A stretch of DNA of 64,000 bases from Verrucomicrobiota bacterium (GTDB taxonomy: Bacteria; Verrucomicrobiota; Verrucomicrobiia; Verrucomicrobiales; DEV007): the NCBI GenBank assembly GCA_020630975.1, contig JAHDID010000006.1, positions 91,182-155,181 on the forward strand, written 5' to 3'. The notes under the pieces are model-generated. The model ran no database searches. It had not been told where the DNA came from and saw only the letters and a list, made by a program, of their open reading frames with translations. A program made the position numbers and the translations under genes. Within the stretch, counting starts at the first letter, position 1, and each line of letters begins with the position of its first letter. Below, piece after piece: positions 3,791 to 52,900 of this stretch.

Positions 3791-3828
3791 ATTGTACCCT
3801 ATTGAATAAAAATTGTACCCTATTGAAT
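3791..3828 (+). repeat. Dispersed 21-bp-period repeat, locus 1 (2 copies)
   Basis: ATTGTACCCTATTGAAT at 3791-3807 and 3812-3828. Confidence 0.9.
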
Positions 3829-5157
3829 TTCGGCCGATTCGGCTGCTAGCTGGCCTCTACGCATATTTACTAGGGTCAAAACGAGGAAGCCACCTACGAG
3901 GAAAAAACCTGTGAGGATGATGAGCGATGGCACGGAGCCCAGCTGGTCCCTCACCAAGCCGAAGATAGGTAGACCGACCACTCCGGCGACTTTATATACC
4001 GTGCCCCACATGCCAAAAAACTCGGCCGTGCGCTCGGTAGGCGTCATCACTCCCACGGCTGCGCGTGTCGCCGTACCGATACCTCCCAGCCCGATACCGA
4101 TCCCAATCCCGACGACCCAAATCGGCCAACTCGGAAAGCTGGTAACATCTACGGTCTGAGCACGCAGATAGGATGTACCGGCCAATCCCGCAGCGACCAA
4201 TGTCCAAAAAATGAGATAGCCGATGAGCGTCACCTTGTGCCCGACTCGATCCTGCAGCAGCCCTACGCCGAAAGCACTAATCCCGGCAAATACCGTGACC
4301 ACTGCGGTGAAGATAACCAAATCGCCAGTCTGAAAACCAAAGTCCTCTCGAGCAATCTTGACCGCGAAGAAAATAATCACCTGCACACCCATGCCATACA
4401 CTAGGAAGCTCAGAAATAGCCTTGCCAGATCGCGAAATCGACCTAGCTCACCAAAGGTGATCTTTATCCGCCCAAACGCATCGCGTATCGGATGTGCAGC
4501 TGTTTCACTATTGCCTTTAGCAATTTCCGGTAGGAAGCGCCAAGTGGGTATCATGACGATAGCAAACCAAATACCCGCAAAGGCCAGCAAGGGACGCCAC
4601 TCGTGAGGCTGCTCCATGCCCAGCATCTTGGTAGGCACCATCATCAAAACTAACAAAATGAGAGCCCCGACATAGCCCATGGTCCAGCCGATAGACGAGA
4701 CCTTTCCCATAGTCTCTCTCGAAGAGATCTCTGGGAGGAATGATGCCAACAAATTCTCACCGAGATTGAAGGCTAAATTCGCCGGTACATAGATCAGAAA
4801 GGCGCATAGAATCGCAACCGTTGGGCCGTACTCAGCACTAGCTGGGAGGAAGGCCAAGCAAACCGTAAGCGTCGCACAGATCAGCCCAGAAGTGATGAGA
4901 AAGCGCTTCTTGCAACCTCGTGCATCGGCTAACGCCCCAACAAAGGGTCCCATGATCGCTGCCAAGCCAAGACTGATCGACCCCATCCAGCCCCACAAGC
5001 TATTGTCGGCAGAGGAATTAGGCAGGATGACCTCGCTGACGAATACCGCGAAGAACAACGTATTGATCAATAGCGTGAACGATTGATTCGCGAGGTCGAA
5101 ACACCCCCATGCGAACACCGTTCGCCAGTTTTTGATTTTTCCAGATGCTTGTTTCAT
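3820..5157 (-). CDS. MFS transporter (UMF1/ATG22-like)
   Basis: About 12 hydrophobic segments; W...D.ANQSF, G.LAD..G.KK, LP...S.E.MGKVS.IG and AEFFG motifs. Confidence 0.88.
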   Translation of the reverse strand: MKQASGKIKNWRTVFAWGCFDLANQSFTLLINTLFFAVFVSEVILPNSSADNSLWGWMGSISLGLAAIMGPFVGALADARGCKKRFLITSGLICATLTVCLAFLPASAEYGPTVAILCAFLIYVPANLAFNLGENLLASFLPEISSRETMGKVSSIGWTMGYVGALILLVLMMVPTKMLGMEQPHEWRPLLAFAGIWFAIVMIPTWRFLPEIAKGNSETAAHPIRDAFGRIKITFGELGRFRDLARLFLSFLVYGMGVQVIIFFAVKIAREDFGFQTGDLVIFTAVVTVFAGISAFGVGLLQDRVGHKVTLIGYLIFWTLVAAGLAGTSYLRAQTVDVTSFPSWPIWVVGIGIGIGLGGIGTATRAAVGVMTPTERTAEFFGMWGTVYKVAGVVGLPIFGLVRDQLGSVPSLIILTGFFLVGGFLVLTLVNMRRGQLAAESAEIQ

Positions 5158-6510
5158 CTATTTCTTTCTCAGATCGTAGCATAGCAAACGCGGCCCGCTG
5201 CCCCCCTCGATAAAGGGAAACTCGGCCTCGTGCTGCGATACATAAAGTCGCCCCTGGTAGAGGACCGGTAGCGACCAAGTCGACCGCGCGTGAAACAGCT
5301 GAGCACGACTGATCTCGCGATAGCCCTCGCGGTCGAGCTCCATCAGCGCCAGAGTGCCTAGCTCGCCGAGTATCCAGTATTTGCTATCAGCCGCCAATAT
5401 ACTGCCACGGAAATAACTGAGCCGATACGGACGCCCGCCGATATCCGTCGGCCAGATGATGTCTTTTTTCCAAAGCTCGCCACCCGTCTCGATATCGAAA
5501 GCCCCTAGATAGGCATCGGGCTCATTGCGACCGAGAAATCCATATAGCGTATCGCTATCCTGCACCGGGGTCATCCAGTGCAGATTGAAACCCGGGGCAT
5601 GCCAGAGCTGCTCCAGTTTCTTATCCGCTGTCAGGCGCAGCATCGTGCCGCCCTCTGAGTAGCACTCCGATATAAAGACCCGATCATCGCCGACTACGAT
5701 AGGCCCGCTGCTATTGACGCTCTCATACTTATCCGATCGCCATGGAAAGGTATCGTATATCTCGCCAGTCGCAGGGTCGATCGCCATCAGCCCACCAAAG
5801 GAAGGTCGACTCTCGCCACCGGCCAGCACGAGTAATACCGGCTCGCCTCCCAGTTTTTTCACCACAGGAGAGCTATAGCTCGCACGCCACTGGTGAGTGG
5901 TGCGCCAGACTTCCTCACCAGTCTGGCTATCGAGCGCTAGCACACACAGATCCTCTGCGGCACCTAGATTGATGATGATTTTGCCATCGAAAACAACTGG
6001 GCACGCCCCGTGACCAAAGAAGGAATCCGCCAACTGATAGTCAGCATCGAGATCGCGCTGCCAGATCTGTGCCCCATCCGCGACCGACAGACACGTCAGC
6101 ACACCTGTGACGCCGATGGTGTAGCACTTGCCCTCGGATAATACCGCGCTAGCCCTGGGACCATTATTGAAGCCGTAGCGGTCGGTGTACTCGACCGGGT
6201 AAGCCACCCGCCAGATCACCTCCCCTGTATCTGGCTGGAATGCCTCGACTACCTCCTCGTCGCCAAAGCGGTCGAACATCACCCCCACCCCATCGGCAAA
6301 AACTGGCGACGTGTAGCCAGAGCCTTTGGGGCGCTGCCAGCTGAGAGGTGGCCCCGTCTCGGGAAAACTATCGATCAACCCTGTCTCTGGGCTGGTGCAG
6401 TCGTCTGCAGGCCCGAGAAATCTCGGCCACCCTGCGGCGGTCTCTTCCCCCATGGCTGGGGTGAAAGCCAAAAACAGTAGGAACCCCAAAGATGTGATAG
6501 CTCGGCTCAT
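5158..6510 (-). CDS. Exported PQQ-binding-like beta-propeller protein
   Basis: Signal peptide then WPRFLGP, G.GY.SP, repeated TG..IW motifs. Start moved to ATG 6510. Confidence 0.82.
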   Translation of the reverse strand: MSRAITSLGFLLFLAFTPAMGEETAAGWPRFLGPADDCTSPETGLIDSFPETGPPLSWQRPKGSGYTSPVFADGVGVMFDRFGDEEVVEAFQPDTGEVIWRVAYPVEYTDRYGFNNGPRASAVLSEGKCYTIGVTGVLTCLSVADGAQIWQRDLDADYQLADSFFGHGACPVVFDGKIIINLGAAEDLCVLALDSQTGEEVWRTTHQWRASYSSPVVKKLGGEPVLLVLAGGESRPSFGGLMAIDPATGEIYDTFPWRSDKYESVNSSGPIVVGDDRVFISECYSEGGTMLRLTADKKLEQLWHAPGFNLHWMTPVQDSDTLYGFLGRNEPDAYLGAFDIETGGELWKKDIIWPTDIGGRPYRLSYFRGSILAADSKYWILGELGTLALMELDREGYREISRAQLFHARSTWSLPVLYQGRLYVSQHEAEFPFIEGGSGPRLLCYDLRKK

Positions 6511-6583
6511 AGACGACTGACAAGACGTTGGACGCACTCGATCGCTTAGCAATCGATTCTACAGGCATCAGCGCGCCGATTTT

Positions 6584-7414
6584 TCACTTCTGGCAGTCGG
6601 AGCAGAAGAAAGTCGAACGATTGCTCTGGACGATGCGCTTCACTGGGCTTTCGCAGCCACGGCAGGGCTCCCCCTCTCGATCGTAGACACGGAGCTCTTG
6701 TTTGAAGTAGCCGGCCTCGCCATCCGCATTCAGAAAGTCGCGCAAGGTGGTGCCCCCCATCTCGATCGCCTCGCCGAGCACCTGACGAATCGCCTCGACC
6801 AGTCTCTCGGTGCTGGCTCGCGTGACTCTACCCGCTGCACGCCGGGGTGAGATGCCTGAGAGATACAGTGCCTCGCAGGCGTAGATATTGCCCACACCCA
6901 CCACGACGTGGGAGTTCATGATCAGCTGCTTGATGGCGACCTTGCGGCCTTTCATGCAGGACCAGAGGTAATCGACATCAAAGTCATCGCTGAGCGGCTC
7001 GGGCCCCAGCTTGTGGAGTAGCTCGTGACTGTCCTCTGGGTGTTCCCCGGCTTTGCAATACAGCCAGCAGCCAAATCGCCTCGGGTCGTGGTAGCGCAGC
7101 TCTTTGCCCGATGCCAGCGAGATACCGATGTGATCGTGCTTGCGCCACTCGTCGCTATCGCCACTGAGGATGCGCAGGCTACCCGACATGCCGAGGTGGG
7201 TCAGGAGTGTGCCACCACCGCTGAGCTCGAGCAGGATGTATTTTCCCCGGCGGCGGCTGGATACGACGGTCTGGCCGACCAGCTTGCTGCCGATCTGGCT
7301 AGGCACCGGCCAGCGCAGCGAGCGCTGCCGCACCACGACATCTGAGATCGTCTCCCCATCCAGCCACGGCTGGATGCCGCGGAGGGTGGTTTCGACTTCG
7401 GGTAATTCTGGCAT
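6584..7414 (-). CDS. mutM: Formamidopyrimidine-DNA glycosylase
   Basis: MPELPEVE, RRGKY, HLGMSG, GVGNIY and C-terminal CxxC...CxxCQ zinc finger. Confidence 0.97.
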   Translation of the reverse strand: MPELPEVETTLRGIQPWLDGETISDVVVRQRSLRWPVPSQIGSKLVGQTVVSSRRRGKYILLELSGGGTLLTHLGMSGSLRILSGDSDEWRKHDHIGISLASGKELRYHDPRRFGCWLYCKAGEHPEDSHELLHKLGPEPLSDDFDVDYLWSCMKGRKVAIKQLIMNSHVVVGVGNIYACEALYLSGISPRRAAGRVTRASTERLVEAIRQVLGEAIEMGGTTLRDFLNADGEAGYFKQELRVYDREGEPCRGCESPVKRIVQSNRSTFFCSDCQK

Positions 7415-7426
7415 ACAGCCTCTACG

Positions 7427-9511
7427 TTAGCGCCTTTTTCCGACTGAGGTATTACGATTTGCCACGCTTTGCCCGCCGCCCGTGCTGGGTGAGAATTTCG
7501 GCACCGTTATCTTTGGCACCTTCAGATTGCCGAGACCAGGTTTCTCTTTCTTAAAGATCGAGCTACCGCTACTACGATCGACCACCTCCGCATCACGATG
7601 ACGCTGTGGCAGCTGCAGACTTGGCAGCTCCGGCTTGGGGATCAGCTCCTTGGTCTTTTGCACCATATTGCCTGGCACGCTGGCGAGACCACCGTCGCCC
7701 GAGAGATTGGGGCCTTTTAAGTTTGAGAAAGGCATCTTGACTCCTGGACCGTCACAGGTCTCAGTGGCTTCTTTGCAAAAGATCTGTGGGACCTTAAACA
7801 TTTTAGCATCTGCCTCATTCTCTTCAGCTTCTAGCTCCTTGGTTTTCTGCAGGCCATCGCTAGTCATCATCCAGCCTCTACTCTCTTCAGCAGGCTGGAT
7901 TCCGTTTTTCTTGGAGTATTCCCACTTCACACCTTTTTTGTTAGCCCGCTTTCTGTGCAGCGAGTTATCCACATCCCTGCCCAGTGAGAATAGCTTCGAG
8001 AGAGGCATATTCCCCGGCTGCTCGGTGACTTCGGGGATGGGTTCTGGCTCGTGAGATGGAACAGCTTTCAGGCCACCACCCACAGTCTCATAAAGAGCTA
8101 CTGTGGCCTTAGCCAAGGTGCTTTGAGAGAATAAAAGGACTTCAGCTGCGGCAAATCTCCGATCCTGCAGACGAACGAGGTTTGAGGCATCCACGAGGCC
8201 TTCTTTGAAACCACTGATGACATCGTCGGCGGATTTATTCCTGATCTCCAACTCCGCCTGCTGAGCTACCATCTGTTTTTTGGTGTAGTGGATCGTAGCC
8301 AGTGCGATCTCTACCTCCATGAGTGCCTGTCTGACAACGGCCTCGTACTCACGAATGGCAGTATCCAACTTTGCTTTTTGCTCATTCACACGCGCACGAT
8401 CTGCTCCACCGTGTCCAATCCTCTGTCGTAATCTTGGCCCTCCACCAATCGAGTGACGTAAAATGTCTTCCACACCATTTCGAAATAGGGACTCATAAGT
8501 GATCGCTCCCTTCAGATTGAAGTCGGGGTAATAATTTCCCATCGCCACACCGATATTAGACACCTGGACGGCTAGTTTTCTCTCAGCCACCTGAATATCA
8601 GGTCGGTTTCGCAACACCTGCATCGGCAGTGGTGCTGAAATACAACTTGGCATCTTGGGGATCACCGAGCTTTTGCCGCATCCCATAATCTCCTCGATCC
8701 TAGCTGGGGGTAAGGCGCAGATGCGACTCAGATTGTAGATCGCCTCTGCTCTACTCTGCTCAAAACGTGGAATATTCGCCTGCTCTTGGATCGTCCGCCC
8801 TCTGGCCTCATCTAGATTGATTCGACTAGCCAAACCTGATCTGACGAGCATCTCTGAAATATCTTCACCCTCCTTCAGTTTGGCTATCTTTTCCTCCGAC
8901 AATCGGATCCGTGCTTCCGCCACTCTCGCATTCACATAGTAGAGTGCCGTACTCGATGTGAAAAAGACGTAGCTATCTCGGTACCCCTCAACAACCGATT
9001 CCATGAATCGATCTGACGACTCGATCATCCTGTGCCTCTTTCCAAAGACGTCAAAACTCCAACCTTGGGAAATTTGTGCAAAATTATAAACTGGCTCACC
9101 CGGATCGAACTTCAAGCCATCGCTGAACCCTCCAAGTCCAATATCGTAATCGCCAAGAAAGTCATGGCCGGGGAAGTACCATCCCCTCAGGACATTTCGT
9201 TGTGCCCATGCCTCCTCGACACGTGACCTGCCTCGTAGAACCTTAGGATTTGCCTTCCGAGCCTGATCAATCAAGCAGCTCAAAGTGTCGTCTGTGAATT
9301 CATTCCACCATCTCTCTACAGCTTCGTCGGAATAATCTCGATTTGGGTTCTTCGGGTCGAAACCAGCTCTAGCGCCTTCCGGAACATGCCAATCATCTTG
9401 GATGTCCGTCATCACAGGTTTTTTATAATTCGGCCCGATCGTGACGCACGAGGTGAGCATGCCGCAGGCTAAAAATACGGCTATTAGTGGGAGTTGAGTG
9501 GGTGGTTTCAT
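7427..9511 (-). CDS. Outer-membrane efflux lipoprotein (TolC/NodT family) with a long low-complexity C-terminal tail
   Basis: Lipobox LTSC followed by VTIGPNY; P.QVLRNRPDIQVAER NodT motif; about 200 extra K/P-rich residues after the TolC core. Confidence 0.85.
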   Translation of the reverse strand: MKPPTQLPLIAVFLACGMLTSCVTIGPNYKKPVMTDIQDDWHVPEGARAGFDPKNPNRDYSDEAVERWWNEFTDDTLSCLIDQARKANPKVLRGRSRVEEAWAQRNVLRGWYFPGHDFLGDYDIGLGGFSDGLKFDPGEPVYNFAQISQGWSFDVFGKRHRMIESSDRFMESVVEGYRDSYVFFTSSTALYYVNARVAEARIRLSEEKIAKLKEGEDISEMLVRSGLASRINLDEARGRTIQEQANIPRFEQSRAEAIYNLSRICALPPARIEEIMGCGKSSVIPKMPSCISAPLPMQVLRNRPDIQVAERKLAVQVSNIGVAMGNYYPDFNLKGAITYESLFRNGVEDILRHSIGGGPRLRQRIGHGGADRARVNEQKAKLDTAIREYEAVVRQALMEVEIALATIHYTKKQMVAQQAELEIRNKSADDVISGFKEGLVDASNLVRLQDRRFAAAEVLLFSQSTLAKATVALYETVGGGLKAVPSHEPEPIPEVTEQPGNMPLSKLFSLGRDVDNSLHRKRANKKGVKWEYSKKNGIQPAEESRGWMMTSDGLQKTKELEAEENEADAKMFKVPQIFCKEATETCDGPGVKMPFSNLKGPNLSGDGGLASVPGNMVQKTKELIPKPELPSLQLPQRHRDAEVVDRSSGSSIFKKEKPGLGNLKVPKITVPKFSPSTGGGQSVANRNTSVGKRR

Positions 9512-9615
9512 AATAAAAAATCCGCACTAGATGGGAAAATTTAATATTTGCAAAAAAACCATATAATAACGTATAATAAAGTTAAAATTTTAATTTTGTT
9601 AAATTTTCTACTAAT

Positions 9616-11205: not shown

Positions 11206-11263
11206 GACAGGCTGAGGCGCTTAAACCGTAAGCTATATGGAAATCTGAGATTTCCCACAGGGC

Positions 11264-21385: not shown

Positions 21386-22840
21386 CTATTCCGCCTGGCT
21401 CACTTCGGGGAATGGCGAGATCAACTCTAGCCCACTGGGCACGCTATCTGGCACCCAATGATCCAGCTCAGTCGCGCTAGGGCTAGTGAGCGCATGGAGA
21501 AAGGCGACCAACTGATCGACCTGTTTGTCGGTCAGGTAGCGCGGCATCTTCAGCTCCATCGGCATGGTCGACTTCACGTCTTTGATGGTCCGGCGATCAT
21601 TGTGCACCGCTCCACGGAATTCCGGCTCGAGTTGATCGACATCATAGTTCTCCAGTGAGTGCACAGGATTCAAGTGATGGCGCACCGCATCCTCCAGACT
21701 ATCGTAGCATCCATTGTGCATGTATGGGGCCGTCAGTGCCACATTGCGCAGCGGTGGTGTGCGGAAGTGGTATTTGAGGTCCAGTCCTGCATTGCTACGG
21801 TGTGCGACGCCGTAGTCCGCATCCTCCTCCATATCTGGGCCTGGGCCGATCGGCACAATGCCGATGTTGTGCATTTTCTGGTCGGTCATCAGTCGACCAC
21901 CATGACAGTCGGAGCACTTGGCTTTGCCGTAAAATAGATGGGCCCCCGCCAACTGAGCGTCCGTCAAAGCCTCATCATCGCCCGCCAGAAATTGATCCCA
22001 AGGGCTATCTCGCAGTGTGAATGCAGTGGTCTCAAACGCCGCTATGGCATTGCCCACCGCTGAGAACTTGATCTCTTCCAGCGACTTATCTGGGAAGGCT
22101 TTGGAGAAAAGCTCGCGGTAACCCTCGATGCCCATCAGACGTTCCATCAGTGTTTCCCAGATCTGGTGCTCGTTGTGGCCGAGGATCTGGCCCACCTCAT
22201 TGTGCCCACCCGTGGCACCCTGTTGCCCCTTGGTACCGCGCATCTCATCGCTGGATAGCACTGGCACCATAGCCTGAGCCGCTAGCAGCCCATCCACCTC
22301 CTCGGGCATACGCACCTGGTATAGCCCCTCAGACTGGGTGAGCCGCATCGAATTGAGCGCGAATTTCCCCGGCTCATACTCATGCACACGCCCATCCCAG
22401 AACATATTTTTCCAAGCCGAATCACCTCGGTTGAAGATCTCTGGAGAATTGCGCGGGGTGAAGGGGTGCGCCGCTCGATTGAGGTCAAACCCCACCAGCA
22501 CCGGCTCTCGCCCCTGGACCTCCATCAGCCGTAGTCCCTCCGGCATACGCTTGCCGGCAGCGCTATCCACATACGCCTTTGTGCCGACCGCACGCGAGCG
22601 TCCATCGGCCGTGGCAGTGCTGGGGTGGTGACACGTCGCACAGGAGACATCCTGATTGCCCCCTAGCACAGGATCGAAAAACAACGCCTGCCCCAGCTTT
22701 ACCTGCGCCTCAGGAAACTCCCGAGGTGCCTCCAGAGGCGTCACAGCGTGCTCCACCAATAGCTCTCGCAGCGATGCCGCGTCCTCAGCGCTAGCTATAC
22801 GACTCAAACAAACCAGTGCGATCAGGGTCCAGTGCCTCAT
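21386..22840 (-). CDS. Di-heme cytochrome c peroxidase / MauG family protein
   Basis: Signal peptide; LGQALFFDP..G...SCATCHH, CSDCHGG, FRTPPLRNV.LT.PYMHNG. Start moved to ATG 22840. Confidence 0.9.
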   Translation of the reverse strand: MRHWTLIALVCLSRIASAEDAASLRELLVEHAVTPLEAPREFPEAQVKLGQALFFDPVLGGNQDVSCATCHHPSTATADGRSRAVGTKAYVDSAAGKRMPEGLRLMEVQGREPVLVGFDLNRAAHPFTPRNSPEIFNRGDSAWKNMFWDGRVHEYEPGKFALNSMRLTQSEGLYQVRMPEEVDGLLAAQAMVPVLSSDEMRGTKGQQGATGGHNEVGQILGHNEHQIWETLMERLMGIEGYRELFSKAFPDKSLEEIKFSAVGNAIAAFETTAFTLRDSPWDQFLAGDDEALTDAQLAGAHLFYGKAKCSDCHGGRLMTDQKMHNIGIVPIGPGPDMEEDADYGVAHRSNAGLDLKYHFRTPPLRNVALTAPYMHNGCYDSLEDAVRHHLNPVHSLENYDVDQLEPEFRGAVHNDRRTIKDVKSTMPMELKMPRYLTDKQVDQLVAFLHALTSPSATELDHWVPDSVPSGLELISPFPEVSQAE

Positions 22841-22877
22841 TTCAATAGGGTACAAAAATTATTCAATAGGGTACAAT
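22840..22877 (-). repeat. Dispersed 21-bp-period repeat, locus 2 (2 copies)
   Basis: TTCAATAGGGTACAA starts at 22841 and 22862 (reverse complement of the consensus). Confidence 0.9.
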
Positions 22878-22912: not shown

Positions 22913-22941
22913 AAAAAAGGTCGCACCGAGAGTGCGCCTTT
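22913..22941 (-). terminator. Terminator-like hairpin upstream of the peroxidase gene
   Basis: Minus strand AAAGGCGCAC-TCTCG-GTGCG(A)CCTTT followed by more Ts. Confidence 0.45.
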
Positions 22942-28904: not shown

Positions 28905-28942
28905 ATTGCACCCTATTCAGTCAAAACAGTACCCTATTGAAT
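28905..28942 (+). repeat. Dispersed 21-bp-period repeat, locus 3 (2 degenerate copies)
   Basis: ATTGCACCCTATTCAGT and CAGTACCCTATTGAAT; CCCTATT cores at 28911 and 28932. Confidence 0.8.
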
Positions 28943-39162: not shown

Positions 39163-39822
39163 TTACCACTGAACCTCATCGAGTTCTGAATATTGCTCCA
39201 GATAAGCATCGCAGCAGCCGCTCAGGACGATGGCGTCGCCCTGTTTGGTGGCTGAGATTGGGGAAAGTGCACGGACGATTTGACCGCCCACGGCTAAAAG
39301 AAGTCCAGGAATAAGGGTGACGATACTGAGGGTGACGGCACCCACTAGCACCATGAGTATCCCTAGGCCAGATAGAGTCCACCCTAGAGCCGTCTGCACT
39401 TTGTGGTTCTCGTTGGCTTTATTGCTCAAACCCAGCTCAACGACAACTGCAGGCTTCAGCCAAGAGACTGGATTGGTCGGAGAGCTCAGTCCTACGGACT
39501 TGGTGACCTTCGACTTACGGCCGGTCTTGGGGCACTGGTGAGTGTGCGGCATGGCTCCATTCTCAAAAAAGAGCTTTTTACCCGCTCGATAAGCTGTCGG
39601 CTGGGCAGCTGGCTGTGGAGCCTGCTCGACCGCCTGAGGCACTACCGCCTGGGGCTCGTCTGATGGCACAGGCAGCACATCCATATGGCCCTGCGCCGGC
39701 GGCACGGGCTGCTGTTGTGCTGGCGGCACCGGCTGGGCTACCTGTGCTGGTGGCACCGGCTGAGGCTGCGCTGGCGGCACCGGCTCAGGGGTCGGTGGGA
39801 GAGGTTGGGTTGACTGGGTCAT
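39163..39822 (-). CDS. Membrane protein with Pro/Gln-rich N-terminal repeats
   Basis: PVPPAQ repeated four times; CPKTG motif; two C-terminal TMs. Confidence 0.72.
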   Translation of the reverse strand: MTQSTQPLPPTPEPVPPAQPQPVPPAQVAQPVPPAQQQPVPPAQGHMDVLPVPSDEPQAVVPQAVEQAPQPAAQPTAYRAGKKLFFENGAMPHTHQCPKTGRKSKVTKSVGLSSPTNPVSWLKPAVVVELGLSNKANENHKVQTALGWTLSGLGILMVLVGAVTLSIVTLIPGLLLAVGGQIVRALSPISATKQGDAIVLSGCCDAYLEQYSELDEVQW

Positions 39823-42616: not shown

Positions 42617-42628
42617 ATCCCTGCCCAA

Positions 42629-42718
42629 ATTCAATAGGGTATAAAAATCATTCAATAGGGTACAGTAAAAATTCAATAGGGTACAGCGCGAGATTGCTCG
42701 TAAAGTACCCTATAGAAT
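42629..42718. repeat. Dispersed 21-bp-period repeat, locus 4 (3 reverse copies plus 1 inverted copy)
   Basis: TTCAATAGGGTA at 42630, 42651, 42672; GTACCCTATAGAAT at 42705-42718. Confidence 0.92.
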
Positions 42719-45797: not shown

Positions 45798-45886
45798 GTG
45801 CTCGCCCTCCCCCGCCCCAAAAAAACCTGTTAATTTGTACGTTATTATTCGCCCTGGTGTGGATAATTTGTTGCGCTGCCAAACTG

Positions 45887-45908
45887 TATGGGTAACCATA
45901 TAACCATA
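45887..45908 (+). promoter_or_regulatory. Probable autoregulatory operator of the TA operon
   Basis: TATGG-N4-CCATA dyad (45887-45900) plus tandem TAACCATA x2 running into the antitoxin ATG. Confidence 0.5.
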
Positions 45909-46201
45909 TGAAAACTACGATAGAACTGCCCGATGCCCTGCTACGTGCAGCAAAGATGCAGGCTATCGATGAGGGGACTACGCTCAGAGAGCTAGTCATC
46001 TCTGGTCTACAGATGCGGCTTTTCGGTGGCTCCGCATCAGCCTCCGACAGTACCGTCATGGTGAATGAGTCTCCCACCTCAACAAAAGACCTGCAGCACT
46101 TTGATCAGGCTGGCTGGCCTATCGTAGAGCGCCAAGCAGGCGACACCACAGAAGTGACAGACGCGATGGTAGATGACCTGCGCGCAGAGCTAGGGGTATG
46201 A
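45908..46201 (+). CDS. Antitoxin, ribbon-helix-helix (VapB-like)
   Basis: MKTTIELPDALLRAAK..A...G.TLRELV..GL; ATGA overlap with the PIN gene. Confidence 0.85.
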   Translation: MKTTIELPDALLRAAKMQAIDEGTTLRELVISGLQMRLFGGSASASDSTVMVNESPTSTKDLQHFDQAGWPIVERQAGDTTEVTDAMVDDLRAELGV

Positions 46202-46647
46202 GCTACCTGATCGACGTCAATGTACTGATCGCTAGATCGGATCAGAGGCACCAGTATCATGCGGCTGCTTTTCAGTGGTTCGCATCGATAGGTGACCAGC
46301 CATTCTTCACCTGCCCGATCGTGGAAAATGGGTTTGTGCGCATCTTTGGCAATCCAAACTACCCCGGCGGGCCAGGCAATGTCGAAGCCGCCTGCCAGAT
46401 CCTGCGCCTGATTCGCTCCATGCCAGGGCACTGCTTTCTACCCGATGGCCTGTCGATAGCAGATCGTAGTCACTTTCCTGACCTAGGAAACGCCAACGTC
46501 AAAGCTCTGACCGATGTCTACCTACTCGGTCTGGCTGTGGATATGGGTCTGAAATTTGCGACCTTTGACAGTAAGATCAAAGCCCAAACGGTGAAGGGAG
46601 GCGCTCCGGCGCTGGAAGTCATCCTAACGCCAGAGCCGAAACAATAA
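46198..46647 (+). CDS. vapC: PIN-domain ribonuclease toxin
   Basis: LIDVNVLIA, E.GFVRI, TD.YLL.LA, ATFD. Confidence 0.9.
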   Translation: MSYLIDVNVLIARSDQRHQYHAAAFQWFASIGDQPFFTCPIVENGFVRIFGNPNYPGGPGNVEAACQILRLIRSMPGHCFLPDGLSIADRSHFPDLGNANVKALTDVYLLGLAVDMGLKFATFDSKIKAQTVKGGAPALEVILTPEPKQ

Positions 46648-46660
46648 GCCTTGCTAAGAA

Positions 46661-48118
46661 TCAATACTCGCGATCGGTCTTGATACCTGGCTCTGGGATC
46701 GGGTAGCGACCATTCTCATCTGGCATCAGCGGTGAGTCGGAGTCGATCGTGAGATTCTCCACACCTTCACCCATGTTGTGCTCGCAGTTGAGCATCTGAT
46801 CGTAAGTGATCTCCTGCCCAGTATGAGCTGCCATGCGTCCCATCGATGTGGTCACACTCGCGGCGACGCCACGCTCGACTTCATTGAACTCCTCGCCCTC
46901 GCGGATCGCTGTGAGCAGTGCCTCCCACTCGTGGTCGTAGGGACTCCCCTCCAGACTGCGACCGCGATCGCCTGTAGGGAATGCCCACAGCAGGTTCTCA
47001 GGCTTGCCACGCCAGTTTTTGTCGATCTTTTGGTCGCTGAACATCCGCGAACGAGCCGGTACGTGCCCTGCAGAGGAGATCACTGCAGATCCCTTGGTGC
47101 CGTGAGCATAGGCGGCGAACTCTTGGTAGCAGTTCTTCACATTGCGCCCATCAAAGATGGCTTTGGCACCATCCTCGAAGGTGTACTCCACAGAGTAGCT
47201 ATCGAAGTTCTGATCCACCGCATCGACCATCTCGCCATTTTTCTCGATCTGCTTGTAGTGTCGACCACCGTAAGCCGTTGCTTTCACTGGGAAGGCGTTT
47301 TTGATCATGCACATCTCATCGATACCGTGGATGAAGAAATCGCTAAATGAGCCCCCACTGAGCCAGAGGAAACTGTGGAAATTGCGGATCTGATACATCA
47401 GCTCGCTCATATCGGTCGTATTCGGAGCGGTGAAACAGGAGCCGATCGGGCCCTGCAGACGGTAGGAGCGCAATAGGTGGATATCGCCGATCTCACCATC
47501 ATCGATGCGCTTCTTCAGTTCATTACGCGACTTGCAGTGGCGGCACATCAGACCCACGCCCACCTTTAGGCCTTTGGCCTTGGCTTTGATGTTCGTCTCG
47601 AGGATCTTTCGCGCCGAGTAGCCATCCGCGATCACAGGCTTCTCCATGAACACGTTCAAACCACGCTCCACAGCGTAGTCGAACATCGGCCAACGAAAGG
47701 CACAAGGCGTCGTCAGGATAGCGATATCGCCTGGATTCATCGCGTCCATCGCATTTTTGTACCCGTCAAATCCGAGGAATCGCCTTTCTTTTGGCACGTC
47801 GATTTTATCGACTAGATCCTCCTGCTTGCTCAGCGTTTGGTAACTGCGGTCGAGCTTGTCCTCGAACACATCAGCCATCGCATGCAACTTCAGAGGGCCT
47901 AGCGAGCCCGATACCGAGAGCGCATTTTTCACTGCACCAGTGCCCCTGCCCCCGCAGCCGACGAGCGCTATTTTCACCTCATCATTACTCTGAGCGTGCA
48001 CATGCGGCAATGCGATACCGGATAGGACAGAAGCTGCAGCCCCGGCCTTGACCACCGAGCGACGGTCGATCGAGGACTTATCAGAAATGGAATCAATGAA
48101 GTTGTTGTCTTGGCTCAT
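46661..48118 (-). CDS. Tat-exported Gfo/Idh/MocA oxidoreductase
   Basis: DRRSVVK signal; ALVGCGGRGTGA, FMEKPV. Start moved to ATG 48118. Confidence 0.92.
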   Translation of the reverse strand: MSQDNNFIDSISDKSSIDRRSVVKAGAAASVLSGIALPHVHAQSNDEVKIALVGCGGRGTGAVKNALSVSGSLGPLKLHAMADVFEDKLDRSYQTLSKQEDLVDKIDVPKERRFLGFDGYKNAMDAMNPGDIAILTTPCAFRWPMFDYAVERGLNVFMEKPVIADGYSARKILETNIKAKAKGLKVGVGLMCRHCKSRNELKKRIDDGEIGDIHLLRSYRLQGPIGSCFTAPNTTDMSELMYQIRNFHSFLWLSGGSFSDFFIHGIDEMCMIKNAFPVKATAYGGRHYKQIEKNGEMVDAVDQNFDSYSVEYTFEDGAKAIFDGRNVKNCYQEFAAYAHGTKGSAVISSAGHVPARSRMFSDQKIDKNWRGKPENLLWAFPTGDRGRSLEGSPYDHEWEALLTAIREGEEFNEVERGVAASVTTSMGRMAAHTGQEITYDQMLNCEHNMGEGVENLTIDSDSPLMPDENGRYPIPEPGIKTDREY

Positions 48119-48308
48119 ATTTGGCAAGCTCTCAATGGGTAGCCCATGTTGCAACGGCGCATCTAAGGCAAAACTAATCCGGCCAATCAGCTTGATTCTA
48201 AATTTGGTGAGGGAACCAAATAATTTTTGAAAAGAACACAAACATCATTGACAACGATTGCACCACTGTCTAAAAAGATGGGTTAGACCAGCTTGACCAT
48301 TTTATTAG

Positions 48309-50618
48309 ATGAAAGTTTCCCAAAAATTTCTACTCGCTCTAAGTTGCGGACTTTTTATAAGTCTCAGTTCCGCTCAGGAGCCCTCTGTCGAAGTGAAGCC
48401 TGTCTCTGGGAAGCCTGCTGCTAATAAGTCAACGCCTCTCAAAAACGCAGTTTCCAAGGTCAAGTCGTCGCTCAACAGTTCGACCAAGACAGCAGACGAT
48501 TTGCCTCCTCTCCCAGAGCTACCATCTCTGCCAGTCGTAGATCCTGTAGTGCCTGCTAGCTCTCAGATGGAGGCGACTCCGCTGCCAGATCCTGTCAATT
48601 CCTTTGAGCAAGGTCCGCCTCTACTAGGTGATACTCAGAATGTAGCCACTATCCCATCTTCTCCCGTCCCAGGGTCTGTCTCAGGTGGTCAGCCAGTCGA
48701 GGCCGAGGTCAAGTCTCGCGGCAACTGGCTGCAGAACATGCGCTTCAAGTCATCACCACTTCCAGATGAGAGCGAGCAGGGCTCCACAGGTGTTTACCAG
48801 AAAGATGTGAGAAAATCTGCCAAGGTAGAAGATTTCACCGCCATCGATGATCTTGAGATCAGCTCGGATCCGATCAATCGCTTCCCTTTCATCGATCTGC
48901 CATACGTCGAGAAGTCGATCGCAGAGCAGAATGTGGAATGGCTGACTAGCGAAGTCGCCCGCGAGTATTCCAAGAATCTGGCTGCGATTAATGCAGACAC
49001 CAGCGCGATCACTGCTTCTGATCTTCCATCTGTTCCTGGCAACATGAAGGCCAACTGGTCCACCAAGATCTACCAGCGCGTATGGAGAGAGCACGGTGCT
49101 CTGCGTCGCACAGTGCGCGACACCTTTGGCGAGGCGCTTCAGCACTCTCACCAGATCAAGAGCTTTTCAGAAATCCCAGTCATCCGTGAGACAGGTGTCC
49201 AGGAGGCTTATGGGGCTTTCGACATGTCTGTGTTTATCGATTCTCGCTACACACGGACGAATGAGCCGACTTCTAGCCAGCTGACAGCAGGACAGGGTAT
49301 CAACCGCTTCCAGCAGGATCTGCACGAGACTGAAGCAGGTCTTCGTAAACGCCTGATGAACGGTACTGAGGTATCCGTTTCCAACCGTGTGTCCGCGCTT
49401 CACAGCAATTCGACATTTCTCGACCCCAACCCACAGTCGGGTTCAGAAGTGGTTCTCTCTGTTTCTCACCCTCTACTTCGTGGTGGTGGCTATCACTACA
49501 ACACTGCAGGCATCAAGATCGCCATGCTAGACTCCAAGATGGGTGTGGCAGAGTATGTCCGTCAGCTTGAGCAGTATCTCCTCGAAATCAGCCGCACCTA
49601 TTGGGGTGTCTATCTCGCTCGCGCAAACTTCGTGCAAAAGCGTGCTGCTGTTGAGACCACCAAAAGGATCGTTGATCAGCTCGAAGATCGCCGTGAAGTC
49701 GATGACACAGCAAACGAGTCGGAGCTGCTTCGTGCACGCTCTTCTGTAGCCCAGCGCCAAGCCGCTTTGGTTCGTGCAGAAATGTCGATCCGCCTCGCAG
49801 AAGAGAGACTTCGCACACTAGTGAGCGGCCCTAATTTCGCGCTTGGTAAAACAACTGAGATCATTCCTTGCAGCCGCCCTATCCTAGCAGCTCCAAACGA
49901 AGATGTTCGCGAAGTAGCTCGTGCGGCTATCACCAACCGCCCAGAGCTTCTCGAGGCGTTCTATCAGACACAGGCTGCTGGCATCCGCCGCGACCTTAGC
50001 AAGAACGAACTTCTACCCCAGCTCAACCTGATCCTCGAGCTTTCTACCTCTGGTGTGGGCGGCAATGGTATCAATGGAGCTCCTGGCACTTTGCAGTTCA
50101 ACGATGCCTACCTTGACCAGTTCAACCACGATCCAGGTGGTCTTGCCGGACTCAGCTTCGAGATGCCTCTCGAGCGCAACTACGCAAAGGCTCGCTACCA
50201 GCGCCGTCGCCACGAGCTGCGCCAGCAGATGCACAATCTCAAGTCGACTATCGACAACATCGCTCTCGAAGCCATCGTAGCTTACCGCGAGCTGGAGACC
50301 GCTTACCGCGATATGCAGGGCAAATACCTCGCAGCCCTCGCAACACGCGAAGAAGTGAAGGCTCTTGAGAATCGTCTGAATATTGATGCTTCCGGTGGTC
50401 GTTCCGTCGGTGATCAGCTGCAGCTCATCCTCGATGCTGTCGATCGCAACATCGCAGCGGAAGAGGCATTCCTAGTCAGTGTTGTCACTTACAACGTCGC
50501 TTTCACCTCTCTCGATAAGGCACGTGGTTCACTGCTCAAGCGACACGATGTGGGAGTCTTCCGCACTCAAGAAGATGGCCTAGAAACCATCCGCGCAGGC
50601 TACCCAGGCGGTAAGTAA
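48309..50618 (+). CDS. TolC-family outer-membrane protein with long Pro/Ser-rich N-terminal extension
   Basis: Signal peptide, about 250 low-complexity residues, then TolC core (HPLLRGGG, AITNRPEL, NELLPQLNL). Confidence 0.82.
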   Translation: MKVSQKFLLALSCGLFISLSSAQEPSVEVKPVSGKPAANKSTPLKNAVSKVKSSLNSSTKTADDLPPLPELPSLPVVDPVVPASSQMEATPLPDPVNSFEQGPPLLGDTQNVATIPSSPVPGSVSGGQPVEAEVKSRGNWLQNMRFKSSPLPDESEQGSTGVYQKDVRKSAKVEDFTAIDDLEISSDPINRFPFIDLPYVEKSIAEQNVEWLTSEVAREYSKNLAAINADTSAITASDLPSVPGNMKANWSTKIYQRVWREHGALRRTVRDTFGEALQHSHQIKSFSEIPVIRETGVQEAYGAFDMSVFIDSRYTRTNEPTSSQLTAGQGINRFQQDLHETEAGLRKRLMNGTEVSVSNRVSALHSNSTFLDPNPQSGSEVVLSVSHPLLRGGGYHYNTAGIKIAMLDSKMGVAEYVRQLEQYLLEISRTYWGVYLARANFVQKRAAVETTKRIVDQLEDRREVDDTANESELLRARSSVAQRQAALVRAEMSIRLAEERLRTLVSGPNFALGKTTEIIPCSRPILAAPNEDVREVARAAITNRPELLEAFYQTQAAGIRRDLSKNELLPQLNLILELSTSGVGGNGINGAPGTLQFNDAYLDQFNHDPGGLAGLSFEMPLERNYAKARYQRRRHELRQQMHNLKSTIDNIALEAIVAYRELETAYRDMQGKYLAALATREEVKALENRLNIDASGGRSVGDQLQLILDAVDRNIAAEEAFLVSVVTYNVAFTSLDKARGSLLKRHDVGVFRTQEDGLETIRAGYPGGK

Positions 50619-50662
50619 TCGCCAGCCTCTAGCTGCTCTCTTTGAGCCTGACTTTATTCTAG

Positions 50663-50694
50663 CACCCAGCGGTCTTACCCCTGGGTGTTTTTTT
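50663..50694 (+). terminator. Intrinsic terminator
   Basis: CACCCAG...CTGGGTG followed by T7. Confidence 0.75.
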
Positions 50695-50886
50695 GCCCCT
50701 TACACTAGCTTTAGCGACTTAGTATTCAGAGGTTTAAAAAACTTATTACTCTTGACTGTAAGGAGCACTTCGCTTAACTGGCAAACCGCTCTTTTTCTAG
50801 CGCCCAGTCATAGGCTTCGGTCACTATAGGTGAATGCAGTGAGAGTGGAACCTCGACACACATCTCAACACTTTCACCAAACAGAC

Positions 50887-52413
50887 ATGCCTGATTCTGC
50901 CAATCCATCTCAGCAGCCTTACATCGACCCTGCCGGGCAGTCTCACCATCAAGAGCCGTACAATGACTCCTTAAAGTCGGGACCTAAATGGAAAGACAAG
51001 GGCGGTAAAAAAGGCGGTAAAGACAAATATCAGCCTGGTAGCCCAGACGATGTGCTACGCTCGATGCCCGTAGATGCAGATGCGGAGCGCGCAGTCCTGA
51101 GCTGTATGCTCAAAGACCCGACCAACATCGTTCCCGAAGCTGTTACTGAGACCAATCCCGAATTCTTCTACATCCCCGCGCACCGCATCATCTACGAGAT
51201 GATCGTGCACCTCTACCAGACCAAGCCCAACGGTAAGCTCGATGTGATCCTGCTGAATAGCGAACTGGCCGATAAAGAACAGCTCGACCGAGTCGGTGGC
51301 CCTAAGTTCGTAGCCGACCTAGTCGACGATGTCCCGACTACAGCGATGTTCAGCCCCTACGTGGAAGTGCTGAAGAAAAAGTTTATTCTCCGCCGTGTGA
51401 TCGCCGATTGCACCAACTGTGCTGCCGAGGCCTATGAGCACCCAGAAGACGCGGCCGTGTTCCTCGATAGTGTGGAGAAAAAGATCCTCAAGATTCGTGA
51501 TCAGACCGAAAACGAGAAAGAGATCAAGAGCATGAAAACCAGTGTCTGCAATGTGGTGCAGTCGCTGGAGGAGATCATCAGCGGCGGAGCCTCGCTAGGT
51601 CTCATGACAGGTTTCAAAGATATCGATAAAATGACCAACGGCCTTCACGGTGGCGAGATGATCGTCGTGGCGGCTCGTCCTGCGATGGGTAAGACCTCGT
51701 TCGTCATGAACATCGTCGAGAACATCTCCATCGAGCGCGAAAAGAAAGTACCCAGTGCGATCTTCAGCCTGGAGATGAGCGCCGAATCACTAGTCCAGCG
51801 TGTTCTTTGTAGCCGTGCGCAGGTGCATATGTCCAAACTCCGTGGTGGTTTCCTAGGCAAACAAGACTTCCCCAAGCTGATGAAAGTCGCCGGTGAAATG
51901 GCCGAGGCTCCCATCTGGATCGACGATACCCCGGGCCTATCCATCAACGAGCTGCGAGCCAAGGCCCGCCGTCTCAAGCAGCAGCACGATATCGGATTCA
52001 TCGCGATCGACTACCTGCAGCTCCTCAAAGCACCCGACACCGCAGCCCGCGACGGTCGTGAGAAAGAGGTCGCAGAGATCTCAGGCGGTATCAAAGGTAT
52101 CGCCAAGGAGTTGGATATCCCAATCATCGTTCTGGCACAGCTTAACCGCCAACCAGACTCTCGAGGAGGTAAGCCCAAGATGAGTGACCTGCGTGAGTCT
52201 GGCTCGATCGAGCAGGATGCTGACTTGGTCGGCCTGCTGATGCGACCCGAGTACTACGCCGAGGACCAAGAGGACCGCGATGAAAAGACCGGCGAAGCCG
52301 AATTCATCATCGCTAAACAACGTAACGGCGGCACCGGCGAGATCCCGCTGCAGTTCACCAAAGAGTTCATGCGTTTCAGCGATCGGGCCTATCAGGACGA
52401 CGACGATATGTAA
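50887..52413 (+). CDS. dnaB: Replicative DNA helicase
   Basis: AERAVL, AARPAMGKT Walker A, FSLEMS, IDYLQL, LAQLNR, DLRESGSIEQDAD, KQRNG. Start moved to ATG 50887. Confidence 0.97.
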   Translation: MPDSANPSQQPYIDPAGQSHHQEPYNDSLKSGPKWKDKGGKKGGKDKYQPGSPDDVLRSMPVDADAERAVLSCMLKDPTNIVPEAVTETNPEFFYIPAHRIIYEMIVHLYQTKPNGKLDVILLNSELADKEQLDRVGGPKFVADLVDDVPTTAMFSPYVEVLKKKFILRRVIADCTNCAAEAYEHPEDAAVFLDSVEKKILKIRDQTENEKEIKSMKTSVCNVVQSLEEIISGGASLGLMTGFKDIDKMTNGLHGGEMIVVAARPAMGKTSFVMNIVENISIEREKKVPSAIFSLEMSAESLVQRVLCSRAQVHMSKLRGGFLGKQDFPKLMKVAGEMAEAPIWIDDTPGLSINELRAKARRLKQQHDIGFIAIDYLQLLKAPDTAARDGREKEVAEISGGIKGIAKELDIPIIVLAQLNRQPDSRGGKPKMSDLRESGSIEQDADLVGLLMRPEYYAEDQEDRDEKTGEAEFIIAKQRNGGTGEIPLQFTKEFMRFSDRAYQDDDDM

Positions 52414-52437
52414 ATCCGCTTTGCGCGTCGTGGCGGC

Positions 52438-52809
52438 ATGAAATATCTCGCCTTTCTCCCCATAGTCGTCGCCTTAGCGGTGTGGATTTTTCTGCTAACC
52501 GCAGAATACGCCTACTCATTTTCTTTCTCTATCGCCGAGAGACATTGCACAGTCGGATCCGGCCTAGGCTCGGTCGGAATGACGATACGGCACCTCCCGG
52601 ACCTATCTTTTACCCCTAGAGTGAACCGTGCTCCCCTGCCCCTTATCGACGGTACAGATTGGAAATTTCGCTTATTGGCAGGTAAAAGGATCGTCCGAAG
52701 CGGCGACTCATTCCTCCTTGTCCCTTTCTACCTCATCTTTATCGCAGTGGCTGTGCTAAACCTCGCCATTCTTTTCGTAGGTTACAGATTGAGAAAACGG
52801 CGAGAATAA
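52438..52809 (+). CDS. Small two-TM hypothetical protein
   Basis: 123 aa, terminal hydrophobic segments, AT-richer codons than neighbours. Confidence 0.6.
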   Translation: MKYLAFLPIVVALAVWIFLLTAEYAYSFSFSIAERHCTVGSGLGSVGMTIRHLPDLSFTPRVNRAPLPLIDGTDWKFRLLAGKRIVRSGDSFLLVPFYLIFIAVAVLNLAILFVGYRLRKRRE

Positions 52810-52853
52810 CCCTTGGCTTTGCCTCGTGCCCCTCGCGTTTGTTCAGCTCCGCG

Positions 52854-52900
52854 ATTGTACCCTATTGAATAAATATTGAACCCTATTGAATCCTATTCAA
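52854..52900 (+). repeat. Dispersed 21-bp-period repeat, locus 5 (2 copies plus partial)
   Basis: ATTGTACCCTATTGAAT 52854-70, ATTGAACCCTATTGAAT 52875-91, CCTATTCAA 52892-900. Confidence 0.9.

Follow-up and report, generated by a model that had tools for sequence, protein, structure and literature searches.

Evenly spaced, helically phased repeat arrays between the genes of a Verrucomicrobiales bacterium

The iterons of plasmids such as R6K, pPS10, F and RK2 are direct repeats of 17-22 bp with a period of about 22 bp, which are read as duplex by dimeric or monomeric initiator proteins. Cluster A mycobacteriophages carry stoperators, which are single sites oriented with transcription in the phage genome and bound by a known repressor, and paired phased operators are known from the ARG boxes and the lambda operators. 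In bacterial chromosomes, gyrase, IHF and Pol I dock at REP elements and BIMEs (reviewed in PMC5861425 and PMC2817692), and one end of REPs and REPINs carries a conserved tag, GTAG or CGTC (PMC3733652). The cyanobacterial repeat HIP1 is present in Ca. Atelocyanobacterium thalassa as 37 regularly placed copies about 39 kb apart (PMC5861425). Interspersed intergenic repeats are already known; what is unusual in the arrays described here is the loss of hairpin potential with the distribution kept, together with an evenness of spacing in three species of two genera.

Repeat arrays in the window and across the genome

The window is the whole stretch of DNA that was analysed, 64,000 nt in length. 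It contains 12 copies of the unit ATTGTACCCTATTGAAT with 0-3 mismatches each, where shuffled sequences predict 0.06 (Table 1). The five loci, 12 copies and one partial copy listed in the initial annotation were all recovered at their coordinates, and both orientations occur, as had been described. The strict 21-bp period that had been claimed holds for every pair of same-strand neighbours (a 17-bp unit followed by a 4-nt linker, mostly A/T) but not for the copy at 42702, which is inverted and off the lattice. That no copies lie inside genes is approximately right, the exception being unit 2 of array 1, which contains the stop codon of the MFS/Atg22-like transporter ORF (3820-3822, minus strand). 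Convergent, divergent and co-directional contexts had been reported; one convergent and four co-directional cases were found, but no clear divergent case is present in the window. No Rfam family matched within the window.

Table 1. Repeat arrays and adjoining features in the window
Feature	Position	Strand	Copy starts	Units	Context
Array 1	3791..3828	+	3791, 3812	2 exact consensus units ATTGTACCCTATTGAAT, AAAA linker	Flanking genes convergent: photolyase (+), MFS/Atg22-like transporter (-)
Array 2	22840..22877	-	22840, 22861	2 units, mismatches 0 and 2	Upstream of di-haem cytochrome c peroxidase gene (-)
Terminator-like hairpin	22922-22936	-			Array 2 sits downstream of the hairpin
Array 3	28905..28942	+	28905, 28926	2 degenerate units, mismatches 3 and 2	About 235 nt downstream of sulfatase gene (+)
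Array 4	42629..42687	-	42629, 42650, 42671	3 units, mismatches 2, 1 and 2	Begins 13 nt past stop of transglutaminase-like gene (+); upstream of TatD-like gene
Lone inverted unit	42702..42718	+	42702	1 degenerate unit, 3 mismatches	31 bp from array 4, off the 21-bp lattice
Array 5	52854..52902	+	52854, 52875	2 units, mismatches 0 and 1, then partial third unit CCTATTCAAAG (about 52892-52902)	Flanked by 2 co-directional ORFs, both without Pfam match

Many further copies had been anticipated, and the genome of this Verrucomicrobiales bacterium (labelled G000; a 7.1-Mb draft in 158 contigs) holds 754 intergenic copies in 372 arrays, distributed across all large contigs. The arrays comprise 264 dimers, 53 singles, 48 trimers, six tetramers and one pentamer, and the repeat accounts for the most abundant 12-mer of the genome. 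They are direct, head-to-tail repeats: 379 of the 382 neighbour spacings are 21 bp and inverted neighbour pairs are exceptional (2/382). ACCCTAT, with a period of 21 bp, is the only form of the core in G000: 421 pairs lie 21 bp apart and three lie 22 bp apart. The copies are divided into 334 on the plus strand and 420 on the minus strand; the strand bias that the initial annotation had proposed to look for was absent relative to local GC skew.

Coding DNA of G000 is nearly free of arrays. Convergent spacers are enriched (87 vs 61 expected) and divergent spacers depleted (49 vs 80 expected; p = 1e-5), and the most frequent array position is 0-20 nt past a stop codon; the gene calls are crude, being longest ORFs, which makes distances to start codons unreliable. 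Orientation of the motif is not linked to gene direction (108 vs 86), and arrays are neither enriched at synteny breakpoints nor associated with intrinsic terminators (14% vs 17%). The flanking genes are functionally unrelated housekeeping genes. A search for a partner-protein gene by neighbourhood gave no candidate, as the largest arrays, the conserved arrays and the array-bearing island of G043 adjoin ordinary metabolic or metal-resistance genes. G043 is an array-poor genome.

The dimer of G000 has a predicted fold of only -0.3 kcal/mol, and 178-184 of 200 shuffled sequences fold at least as well, whereas its relatives have palindromic consensus units with predicted folds of -12 to -14 kcal/mol. 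Even in a relative, compensatory changes were missing: in 99 units of G050, the arms paired just as expected from shuffling, whether within a unit or across a junction. In G000, unit positions 2 and 16 vary independently, without covariation. The genome is thereby a natural experiment, with a family devoid of any hairpin potential and otherwise unchanged in abundance, phase and distribution. Since copy number, strict phase and distribution are kept, duplex reading by a protein can be separated from hairpin mobilisation.

Even spacing, dialects and turnover

Arrays in G000 are spaced far more evenly than expected. At a density of about one per 15 kb and a distance mode of 10-18 kb, distances between neighbours have a coefficient of variation (CV) of 0.56, compared with 1.04±0.06 under a class-matched null, and 5.8% of distances are shorter than 5 kb as opposed to 33% under the null; the 158-contig draft censors long distances, and the null models were built on identical contigs. 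Three control repeats within the same genome gave CVs of 1.2-1.6. In G015 the CV is 0.47, which was reached in none of 2000 simulations, and in G114, from another genus, it is 0.57 (none of 5000), so that even spacing of about 13-17 kb is shared by three species from two genera. Where long stretches lack arrays, GC tends to be low, which is suggestive of foreign DNA. The only earlier reports of such evenness known to us concern uptake sequences and, in a single genome, HIP1.

The repeat family is present in three genera of one Verrucomicrobiales family. Units of the relatives (consensus GAYTGTACCCTGTTGARTC) have an invariant ACCCTGT core with quasi-palindromic arms and are placed on a 22-bp lattice in any relative orientation. 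The arrays of G000, with the core ACCCTAT, a period of 21 bp and the hairpin potential gone, are a species-specific dialect of this wider interspersed family. Species, congeners included, differ in copy number from about 0 to 978, and no more than 10 pairs are present in five genomes that are fairly complete (77-95%). For Verrucomicrobiales MAGs, the dialects distinguish species sharply. A metagenome scan with the dimer pattern gave no match, a scan with the single unit gave 53 matches, mostly by chance, with an inverted pair on three estuarine contigs, and all 48 matches of a viral scan were unrelated repeats. In the literature, no description of the motif or of a 22-bp Verrucomicrobia repeat was found.

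The majority of array positions turn over from one species to another: for 26 gene ends next to an array in G015, the G000 orthologue also has an array in four cases, vs a background of 18/220. A few sites persist genus-wide, each in the local dialect. One of them lies 3-10 nt past the stop codon of pgk in 13 species, each with its own dialect, and the cores at this site are intact although the intergenic DNA around them has diverged; further retained sites adjoin pckG, dnaG and sdhC-sdhA. Such conserved sites could be retained functional sites or, alternatively, insertion hot spots.

Possible roles of the arrays

The arrays are tentatively read as phased duplex docking arrays for a putative protein, BIME-like in populations and belonging, as a dialect, to the family of three genera; we consider the chance of this combined reading to fall somewhat short of even. 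Binding by a protein is suggested by the anatomy of the units, and the protein-binding lattice put forward in the initial annotation fits the strict two-turn phase, the missing hairpin in G000, the lack of arm covariation in a relative and the even spacing. Each unit has an invariant, asymmetric core (ACCCTGT in the relatives, ACCCTAT in G000) with a weakly specified, quasi-palindromic arm on either side. In double-stranded form, the core would be recognised by a sequence-specific protein, probably as one dimer per unit. As the two to four units are separated by exactly two turns of the DNA (21 bp in G000, 22 bp in relatives), bound proteins would share one face of the helix and could therefore bind cooperatively. 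A copying or gene-conversion process may write arrays into gene-free DNA, often less than 20 nt from a stop codon, and keep them uniform within a species, orthologous sites included, while a distance-dependent effect would hold neighbouring arrays apart at about one per 15 kb. Like BIMEs, the family behaves in populations as a dispensable element whose copy number varies from about 0 to 1000 between congeners and whose positions turn over. Several congeners have almost no copies, which argues against an essential host role. If a protein reads the sites, they would represent undescribed chromosome marking or partitioning in PVC (Planctomycetes-Verrucomicrobia-Chlamydiae) bacteria and would also imply that some mechanism changes hundreds of sites in parallel.

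A bolder form of this reading, which is doubtful at present, is that the arrays form a chromosomal ruler, in which docking arrays of one sequence-specific protein every 13-17 kb mark off regular chromosome segments (as loop anchors, supercoil barriers or roadblocks) and are maintained by a dedicated write-and-homogenise mechanism; if true, such sites would be the bacterial equivalent of insulators. It is unlikely that the arrays are host chromosome-architecture sites whose spacing is itself the selected trait, with even anchors for a nucleoid protein or topoisomerase acting as supercoil-domain barriers, loop anchors or transcription roadblocks. The spacing is of the order of the topological domains of E. 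coli (about 10 kb, as cited in PMC5861425), and the long-retained pgk site, the helical phasing and the location at gene 3' ends and in convergent spacers also agree with such a role. However, copy number collapses to at most 10 pairs in the five genomes mentioned above, most G015 positions are not conserved in G000, intrinsic terminators are not associated with arrays, and near-identical copies within a species call for a copying process as well as selection. Transformation, with a surface receptor that prefers array-bearing fragments, would carry the arrays through the population, homogenise them and set their spacing, and would make them a new class of paired DNA-uptake signals outside Proteobacteria, comparable to DUS and USS. 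A conserved core with lineage dialects, similar numbers in both orientations, duplex recognition, orthologous sites rewritten in the local dialect and the low-GC tendency of long gaps are in line with this, and Haemophilus uptake sequences are significantly evenly spaced according to Karlin et al. (as cited in PMC1939737). ComEC is encoded in G000, but equally in array-free genomes; being nearly universal in the family, it is uninformative on uptake. Array density is about 15 times below that of known uptake sequences, of which 35-65% are intragenic whereas arrays are nearly absent from coding DNA. A strict tandem lattice has no precedent among uptake signals. Although point mutation cannot create a near-perfect array of 38 bp at a new site, the majority of sites differ from species to species. 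An uptake role is quite improbable.

Spread as a REP element by a RAYT-type HUH nuclease, the other candidate of the initial annotation, was rejected. As classical REPs or REPINs, the arrays would be hairpin-forming single-strand substrates mobilised by RAYT, a Y1 HUH transposase. The family has the intergenic, high-copy distribution biased to gene 3' ends and convergent pairs, its relatives' units fold well, G000 encodes 16 Y1_Tnp (PF01797) matches, and the verrucomicrobium Opitutus terrae is reported to be rich in GTAG-type REPs (PMC3733652). However, units that do not fold have reached 754 copies in G000, arms lack compensatory variation, and neither a GTAG nor a CGTC tag is present in the G000 consensus or in that of the relatives. 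In G000, the motif does not flank any Y1-transposase gene, of the RAYT or IS200/IS605 TnpA kind that had been suggested as a sign; arrays lie 1.6 kb or more from each of 14 Y1_Tnp loci. The 355-aa Y1 genes, which are present in several copies, are part of a 1.49-kb element that is unrelated and has its own inverted ends. Across 134 genomes, Y1_Tnp presence is discordant with repeat presence, as array-free genera have it in abundance and G007, G063 and G019, which bear arrays, lack it. Target-site duplications were not apparent: flanking k-mers of 2-3 bp were at shuffle level (24 vs 22 and 10 vs 6), with a small excess at 4 bp (6 vs 1.9). With neither covariation, duplication nor a Y1 link by position or presence, RAYT mobilisation is very improbable. 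Transposon ends of the Tn7/Mu/Tn5053 type are known for 22-bp transposase sites and target immunity, and would call for a TnsB/MuA-type transposase together with a TnsC/MuB/TniB-type regulator. For such Tn7/Mu-type machinery, TniB gave no matches with controls that were detected, and Mu-transpos_C gave none with controls that were silent. Operator or promoter boxes of a large regulon under one transcription factor are hardly credible. Tandem phased sites resemble paired operators, and some arrays, such as array 2, are located upstream of genes, but arrays are depleted in promoter-rich divergent spacers and enriched in convergent ones, their orientation is independent of gene direction, the flanking genes share no function and positions turn over between species.

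Comparison with known systems

Compared with the REPs and BIMEs of Enterobacteria and Pseudomonas, the docking arrays proposed here are similarly short, high-copy, strictly extragenic and grouped in small arrays with fixed internal spacing. Both prefer gene 3' ends and convergent pairs, and both have species-specific sequence types with copy numbers that vary widely between relatives. In contrast, the arrays of G000 have no stem-loop, compensatory changes are missing in a relative, and there is neither a GTAG/CGTC tag nor a RAYT association. Units alternate in REPs but are head-to-tail in G000, and across the family a single 22/21-bp lattice is kept regardless of unit orientation. We know of no description of chromosome-scale even spacing for REPs. 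MITEs differ in having terminal inverted repeats and a target-site duplication, whereas the arrays of G000 are direct repeats.

The label iteron-like, given in the initial annotation, applies to the local architecture, namely direct repeats in duplex with a period of 21 bp (G000) or 22 bp (relatives), but not to the distribution: iterons are located at one replication origin beside a rep gene, while the arrays occupy about 370 chromosomal loci without an adjacent cognate gene. The DUS of Neisseria and the USS of Pasteurellaceae are also hyper-abundant, evenly spaced, present in both orientations and in lineage dialects, and depleted in foreign DNA. They are, however, single 9-12-bp motifs at about one per kb and often intragenic, whereas the arrays have paired 17-19-bp units on a lattice, occur once per 15 kb and hardly ever lie in genes. 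HIP1 shares the hyper-abundance and, in at least one genome, the regular spacing, but is an 8-bp perfect palindrome that is mostly found within genes and not in phased arrays. Stoperators likewise place many copies of one asymmetric repressor site across short intergenic gaps; they differ from the arrays in being single, transcription-oriented and phage-borne sites of a known repressor.

Arrays in the window and across the genome

The five loci that had been flagged from the sequence alone hold all 12 copies of ATTGTACCCTATTGAAT in the window (0-3 mismatches; 0.06 expected). Same-strand neighbours always lie exactly 21 bp apart, a 17-bp unit and a 4-nt linker making up each period, which bears out the strict spacing, and the partial unit was also recovered, following the last array. 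The initial annotation had in addition placed no array inside genes and had described convergent, divergent and co-directional contexts. The former holds mostly, the exception being a unit that contains the stop codon of an MFS transporter (3820-3822, minus strand); one convergent and four co-directional contexts were found, and no clear divergent one. The copy at 42702 is present, but it is inverted, degenerate and off the 21-bp lattice. The inverted doublet in the window is real, and inverted neighbours are exceptional in the genome (2 of 382 neighbour pairs). Approximately 18 arrays genome-wide overlap a stop-codon region; units therefore sometimes supply the stop codon.

Features of the window, of the studied genome (G000) and of one further genome (G043), with their coordinates
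Feature	Location	Description
Unit containing the stop and last two codons of an MFS/Atg22-like transporter	window 3812-3828	ORF 3820..5157, minus strand
24-bp tandem repeat CTGTGCTGGCGGCACCGGCTGCTG	window 39691-39785	3.8 copies, 75% matches; overlaps ORF 39163..39822, minus strand; probably encodes a repetitive peptide
Stretch with 21-bp period	window 42627-42686	detected by Tandem Repeats Finder (window)
Inverted doublet	window 42671-42718	pair off the 21-bp lattice
Stretch with 10-bp sub-period	window 52854-52897	reported by Tandem Repeats Finder, because ATTG recurs every 10-11 bp
Longest array-free gap in G000	C33:8269-83941, immediately upstream of the window	75.7 kb, 49.5% GC vs 53.8% for the genome
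1.49-kb IS-like element (outside the window)	C25:37300-38790, C131:18490-19980, C15:92420-93910, C3:19840-21330	at least 4 copies, ~90% identical; encodes a 355-aa Y1 (HUH) transposase-like protein
Heavy-metal resistance island of G043	C50:240559-261095	three intact arrays ~10 kb apart (L244, L245)

In the draft assembly of the studied bacterium (7.14 Mb, 158 contigs, 53.8% GC), where the window spans C33:91182-155181, 754 copies were counted at no more than 3 mismatches, 271 of which are exact, and 12-mers taken from the repeat unit outnumber all others in the genome. The copies are organized in 372 arrays (264 dimers, 53 singles, 48 trimers, 6 tetramers and 1 pentamer), with neighbours spaced 21 bp apart on the same strand in 379 of 382 cases. 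The unit hardly varies at positions 3-13 and 15, and outside the arrays flank conservation is limited to a preceding G and a following T. About 92% of the arrays lie outside crude ORF calls, which are longest-ORF approximations of genes, and those inside are mostly near ORF ends or degenerate single hits. Relative to the full set of spacers no shorter than 60 bp, convergent spacers are enriched in arrays (87 vs 61 expected) and divergent spacers are depleted (49 vs 80 expected; context test chi-square p = 1e-5). A stop codon is found within 20 nt of nearly half of the arrays, and the largest arrays adjoin the 3' side of housekeeping genes, read as fabF, leuC and proS from N-terminal sequences. 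Motif orientation is tied neither to gene direction (108 vs 86 in co-directional spacers) nor to local GC skew in this genome, and intrinsic-terminator-like hairpins are neither commoner nor rarer beside arrays (14% vs 17%). This distribution matches the one known for REP-type repeats, and it effectively rules out that the units are the boxes of a promoter or operator regulon.

Even spacing of the arrays

The main new result is the even spacing of the arrays. Within contigs of G000, neighbouring arrays are on average 16.8 kb apart (median 15.2 kb, CV 0.56), and the distance histogram peaks at 10-18 kb. As a null, the same number of arrays was placed in class-matched, length-weighted spacers of the same contigs, resulting in a CV of 1.04±0.06; the lowest value reached over 500 runs was 0.88. 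Distances shorter than 5 kb make up 5.8% of those observed vs 33% in the null, and strong deficits are seen at both ends of the histogram, below 8 kb (35 vs ~100 expected) as well as beyond 40 kb (6 vs 23). No near-consensus arrays are closer together than 5.1 kb, and degenerate copies account for most of the rare close pairs. Arrays are also evenly spaced in the relative G015 (mean 16.4 kb, CV 0.47; reached by 0 of 2000 simulations) and in G114, from another genus (mean 13.2 kb, CV 0.57; 0 of 5000). Uptake sequences of Haemophilus have been reported to be evenly spaced (PMC1939737), as has HIP1 in one cyanobacterium (PMC5861425).

Three other words are over-represented in G000, namely CAAGGAGGGGC (109 loci), GGCAGGCTGAGC (67) and GCGACGAGACG (66), and may represent further repeat families; used as control words, they proved clustered (CV 1.2-1.6). 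Low GC content is seen in several of the longest array-free gaps in G000, and the longest may be foreign DNA, such as an island that was acquired, or else a series of giant genes.

Dialects, retained sites and transfer

The exact 15-mer has no match among 40 relatives. With mismatches allowed, ATTGTACCCTGTTGAAT is present in hundreds of copies with a 22-bp period in two congeners, and the palindromic form TGTACCCTGTACA in about 800 copies in a third. In public records, the G-type motif (core ACCCTGT) is found in Verrucomicrobiales MAGs. A generic signature of two ACCCTRT cores 21-22 bp apart has been observed in 53 of the genus's 57 other species, two further genera carry it in every species (3/3 and 6/6), and the remaining genera of the family show background levels; pairs in any orientation range from about 0 to 978 per genome. 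Array-rich genomes are G000, G015, G050, G052, G060, G113-G115 and G118-G123, and array-poor ones are G014, G022, G043, G044 and G071. In the relatives, which were sampled via one 400-kb contig and pattern listings, a 19-bp quasi-palindrome followed by a 3-bp linker makes up the unit (consensus roughly GAYYnAAC-CCT-GTTnRRTC), of which the asymmetric centre reads CCT or AGG, and the 22-bp register between neighbours is kept regardless of the direction of each unit. The G000 repeat is a derived dialect with an ACCCTAT core and a 21-bp period, and no older 22-bp layer is left in this genome (421 pairs at 21 bp vs 3 at 22 bp). No description of the repeat family was found in the open-access literature.

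Three metagenome contigs with related Ga sample identifiers (L136, L137 and L144; Ga0208899_1004153, Ga0075478_10009536 and Ga0208645_1000175) share one locus, in which the exact G000 17-mer and a ACTGTACCCTGTTGAGT unit form an inverted pair. At E ≤ 1e-20, blastn matches none of these contigs to G000, and they therefore derive from an organism or element that is related but has not been sampled. Small viral contigs from IMG/VR (L176, L186, L190, L192, L201, L206, L211, L219 and L221) have in common a conserved pair, TAGACCCTGTTTTCAAACCATGTAGACCCTGTTTTT, directly upstream of an ATG; this pair is unrelated to the repeat family and might serve that phage group as an iteron or operator.

The 400-kb stretch of G015 contains 27 arrays. 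Array-adjacent gene ends of G015 with a G000 orthologue carry an array at the same end in 4 of 26 cases vs a background of 18 of 220, which is not significant, and synteny breaks are not marked by arrays. Among seven syntenic spacers with arrays in G-type MAGs, two carry an array in G000 too. Some array sites are old. At the pgk site, the array begins 3-10 nt past the stop codon in 13 species and lies further downstream in three more, one from another genus. The first unit has a constant orientation relative to pgk, and the downstream gene is aspS or tpiA, depending on the species. This site carries each species' own dialect, in G000 as two perfect consensus copies, and is a decayed relic in one array-poor species. 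Further retained sites are located beside pckG, beside dnaG and between sdhC and sdhA. Gene conversion, re-insertion or a drive is required to bring an inherited site to the local consensus; point mutation under binding selection would not yield 36% exact 17-mers. In the array-poor G043, the island that contains intact arrays encodes a multicopper oxidase, CDF and RND efflux systems and a CopZ/MerT-like protein. These arrays probably arrived by horizontal transfer from an array-rich donor and look like hitch-hikers on the transferred DNA, with no further spread.

Proposed duplex reading, transposases and comparison with known systems

As single-stranded DNA, the G000 dimer folds at -0.3 kcal/mol, worse than most shuffles; values of -14.1 kcal/mol and -12.2 kcal/mol were obtained for the G015 consensus and for the inverted pair at pgk in the relative G007, respectively. 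G000 keeps 754 copies on a strict lattice without a fold, and the family can therefore persist and multiply in the absence of folding. Unit arms are highly variable in the relative G050, where arm pairing, within the unit or across the junction, is at each position what shuffling predicts. The palindrome thus exists only at the consensus level, which is expected from a symmetric protein reading duplex DNA and not from a selected stem. In G000, positions 2 and 16, the two commonest variable positions, vary independently.

A RAYT flanked by the motif, which the initial annotation proposed to look for, was not found among the 16 Y1_Tnp matches in G000, the nearest array being at least 1.6 kb away. 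Across the 134 surveyed genomes, Y1_Tnp is abundant in array-free genera and is lacking in the array-bearing G007, G063 and G019. In addition, the GTAG and CGTC tags, which mark the two REP super-families (PMC3733652), are absent from the repeat unit. Spread by a RAYT in the classical REP manner fails on flanking Y1 genes, co-occurrence, tag and fold, and is highly improbable. Target-site duplications were not found at the arrays, TniB gave no match, and in a Mu-transposase search the controls gave no signal. The multi-copy 355-aa Y1 genes reside in the 1.49-kb element, which has its own inverted ends AAATGGGGACAGGCGAA/TTCGCCTGTCCCCATTT and short tandem units CCCCATTTAC(A/C)C immediately outside one end, and which is similar to the TIR-associated tyrosine transposases that PMC3733652 names.

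DNA-uptake-signal arrays would account for the even spacing as well as for the dialects and their homogenisation, but the origin of 38-bp arrays at new sites and their avoidance of genes are left unexplained; ComEC is uninformative in this respect, and we consider this origin rather improbable. Spacing selected by the host is a less probable alternative to the reading favoured below. We tentatively favour the arrays being putative phased duplex docking arrays for a sequence-specific protein, with BIME-like population behaviour. A process acting over 5-10 kb would separate neighbouring docking arrays, and the spacing would fit a selfish 'write with exclusion zone' process as well as selection by the host. 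The BIME-like behaviour of the arrays lies in their being dispensable, in their expansion in some lineages, in their turnover and in their concerted evolution.
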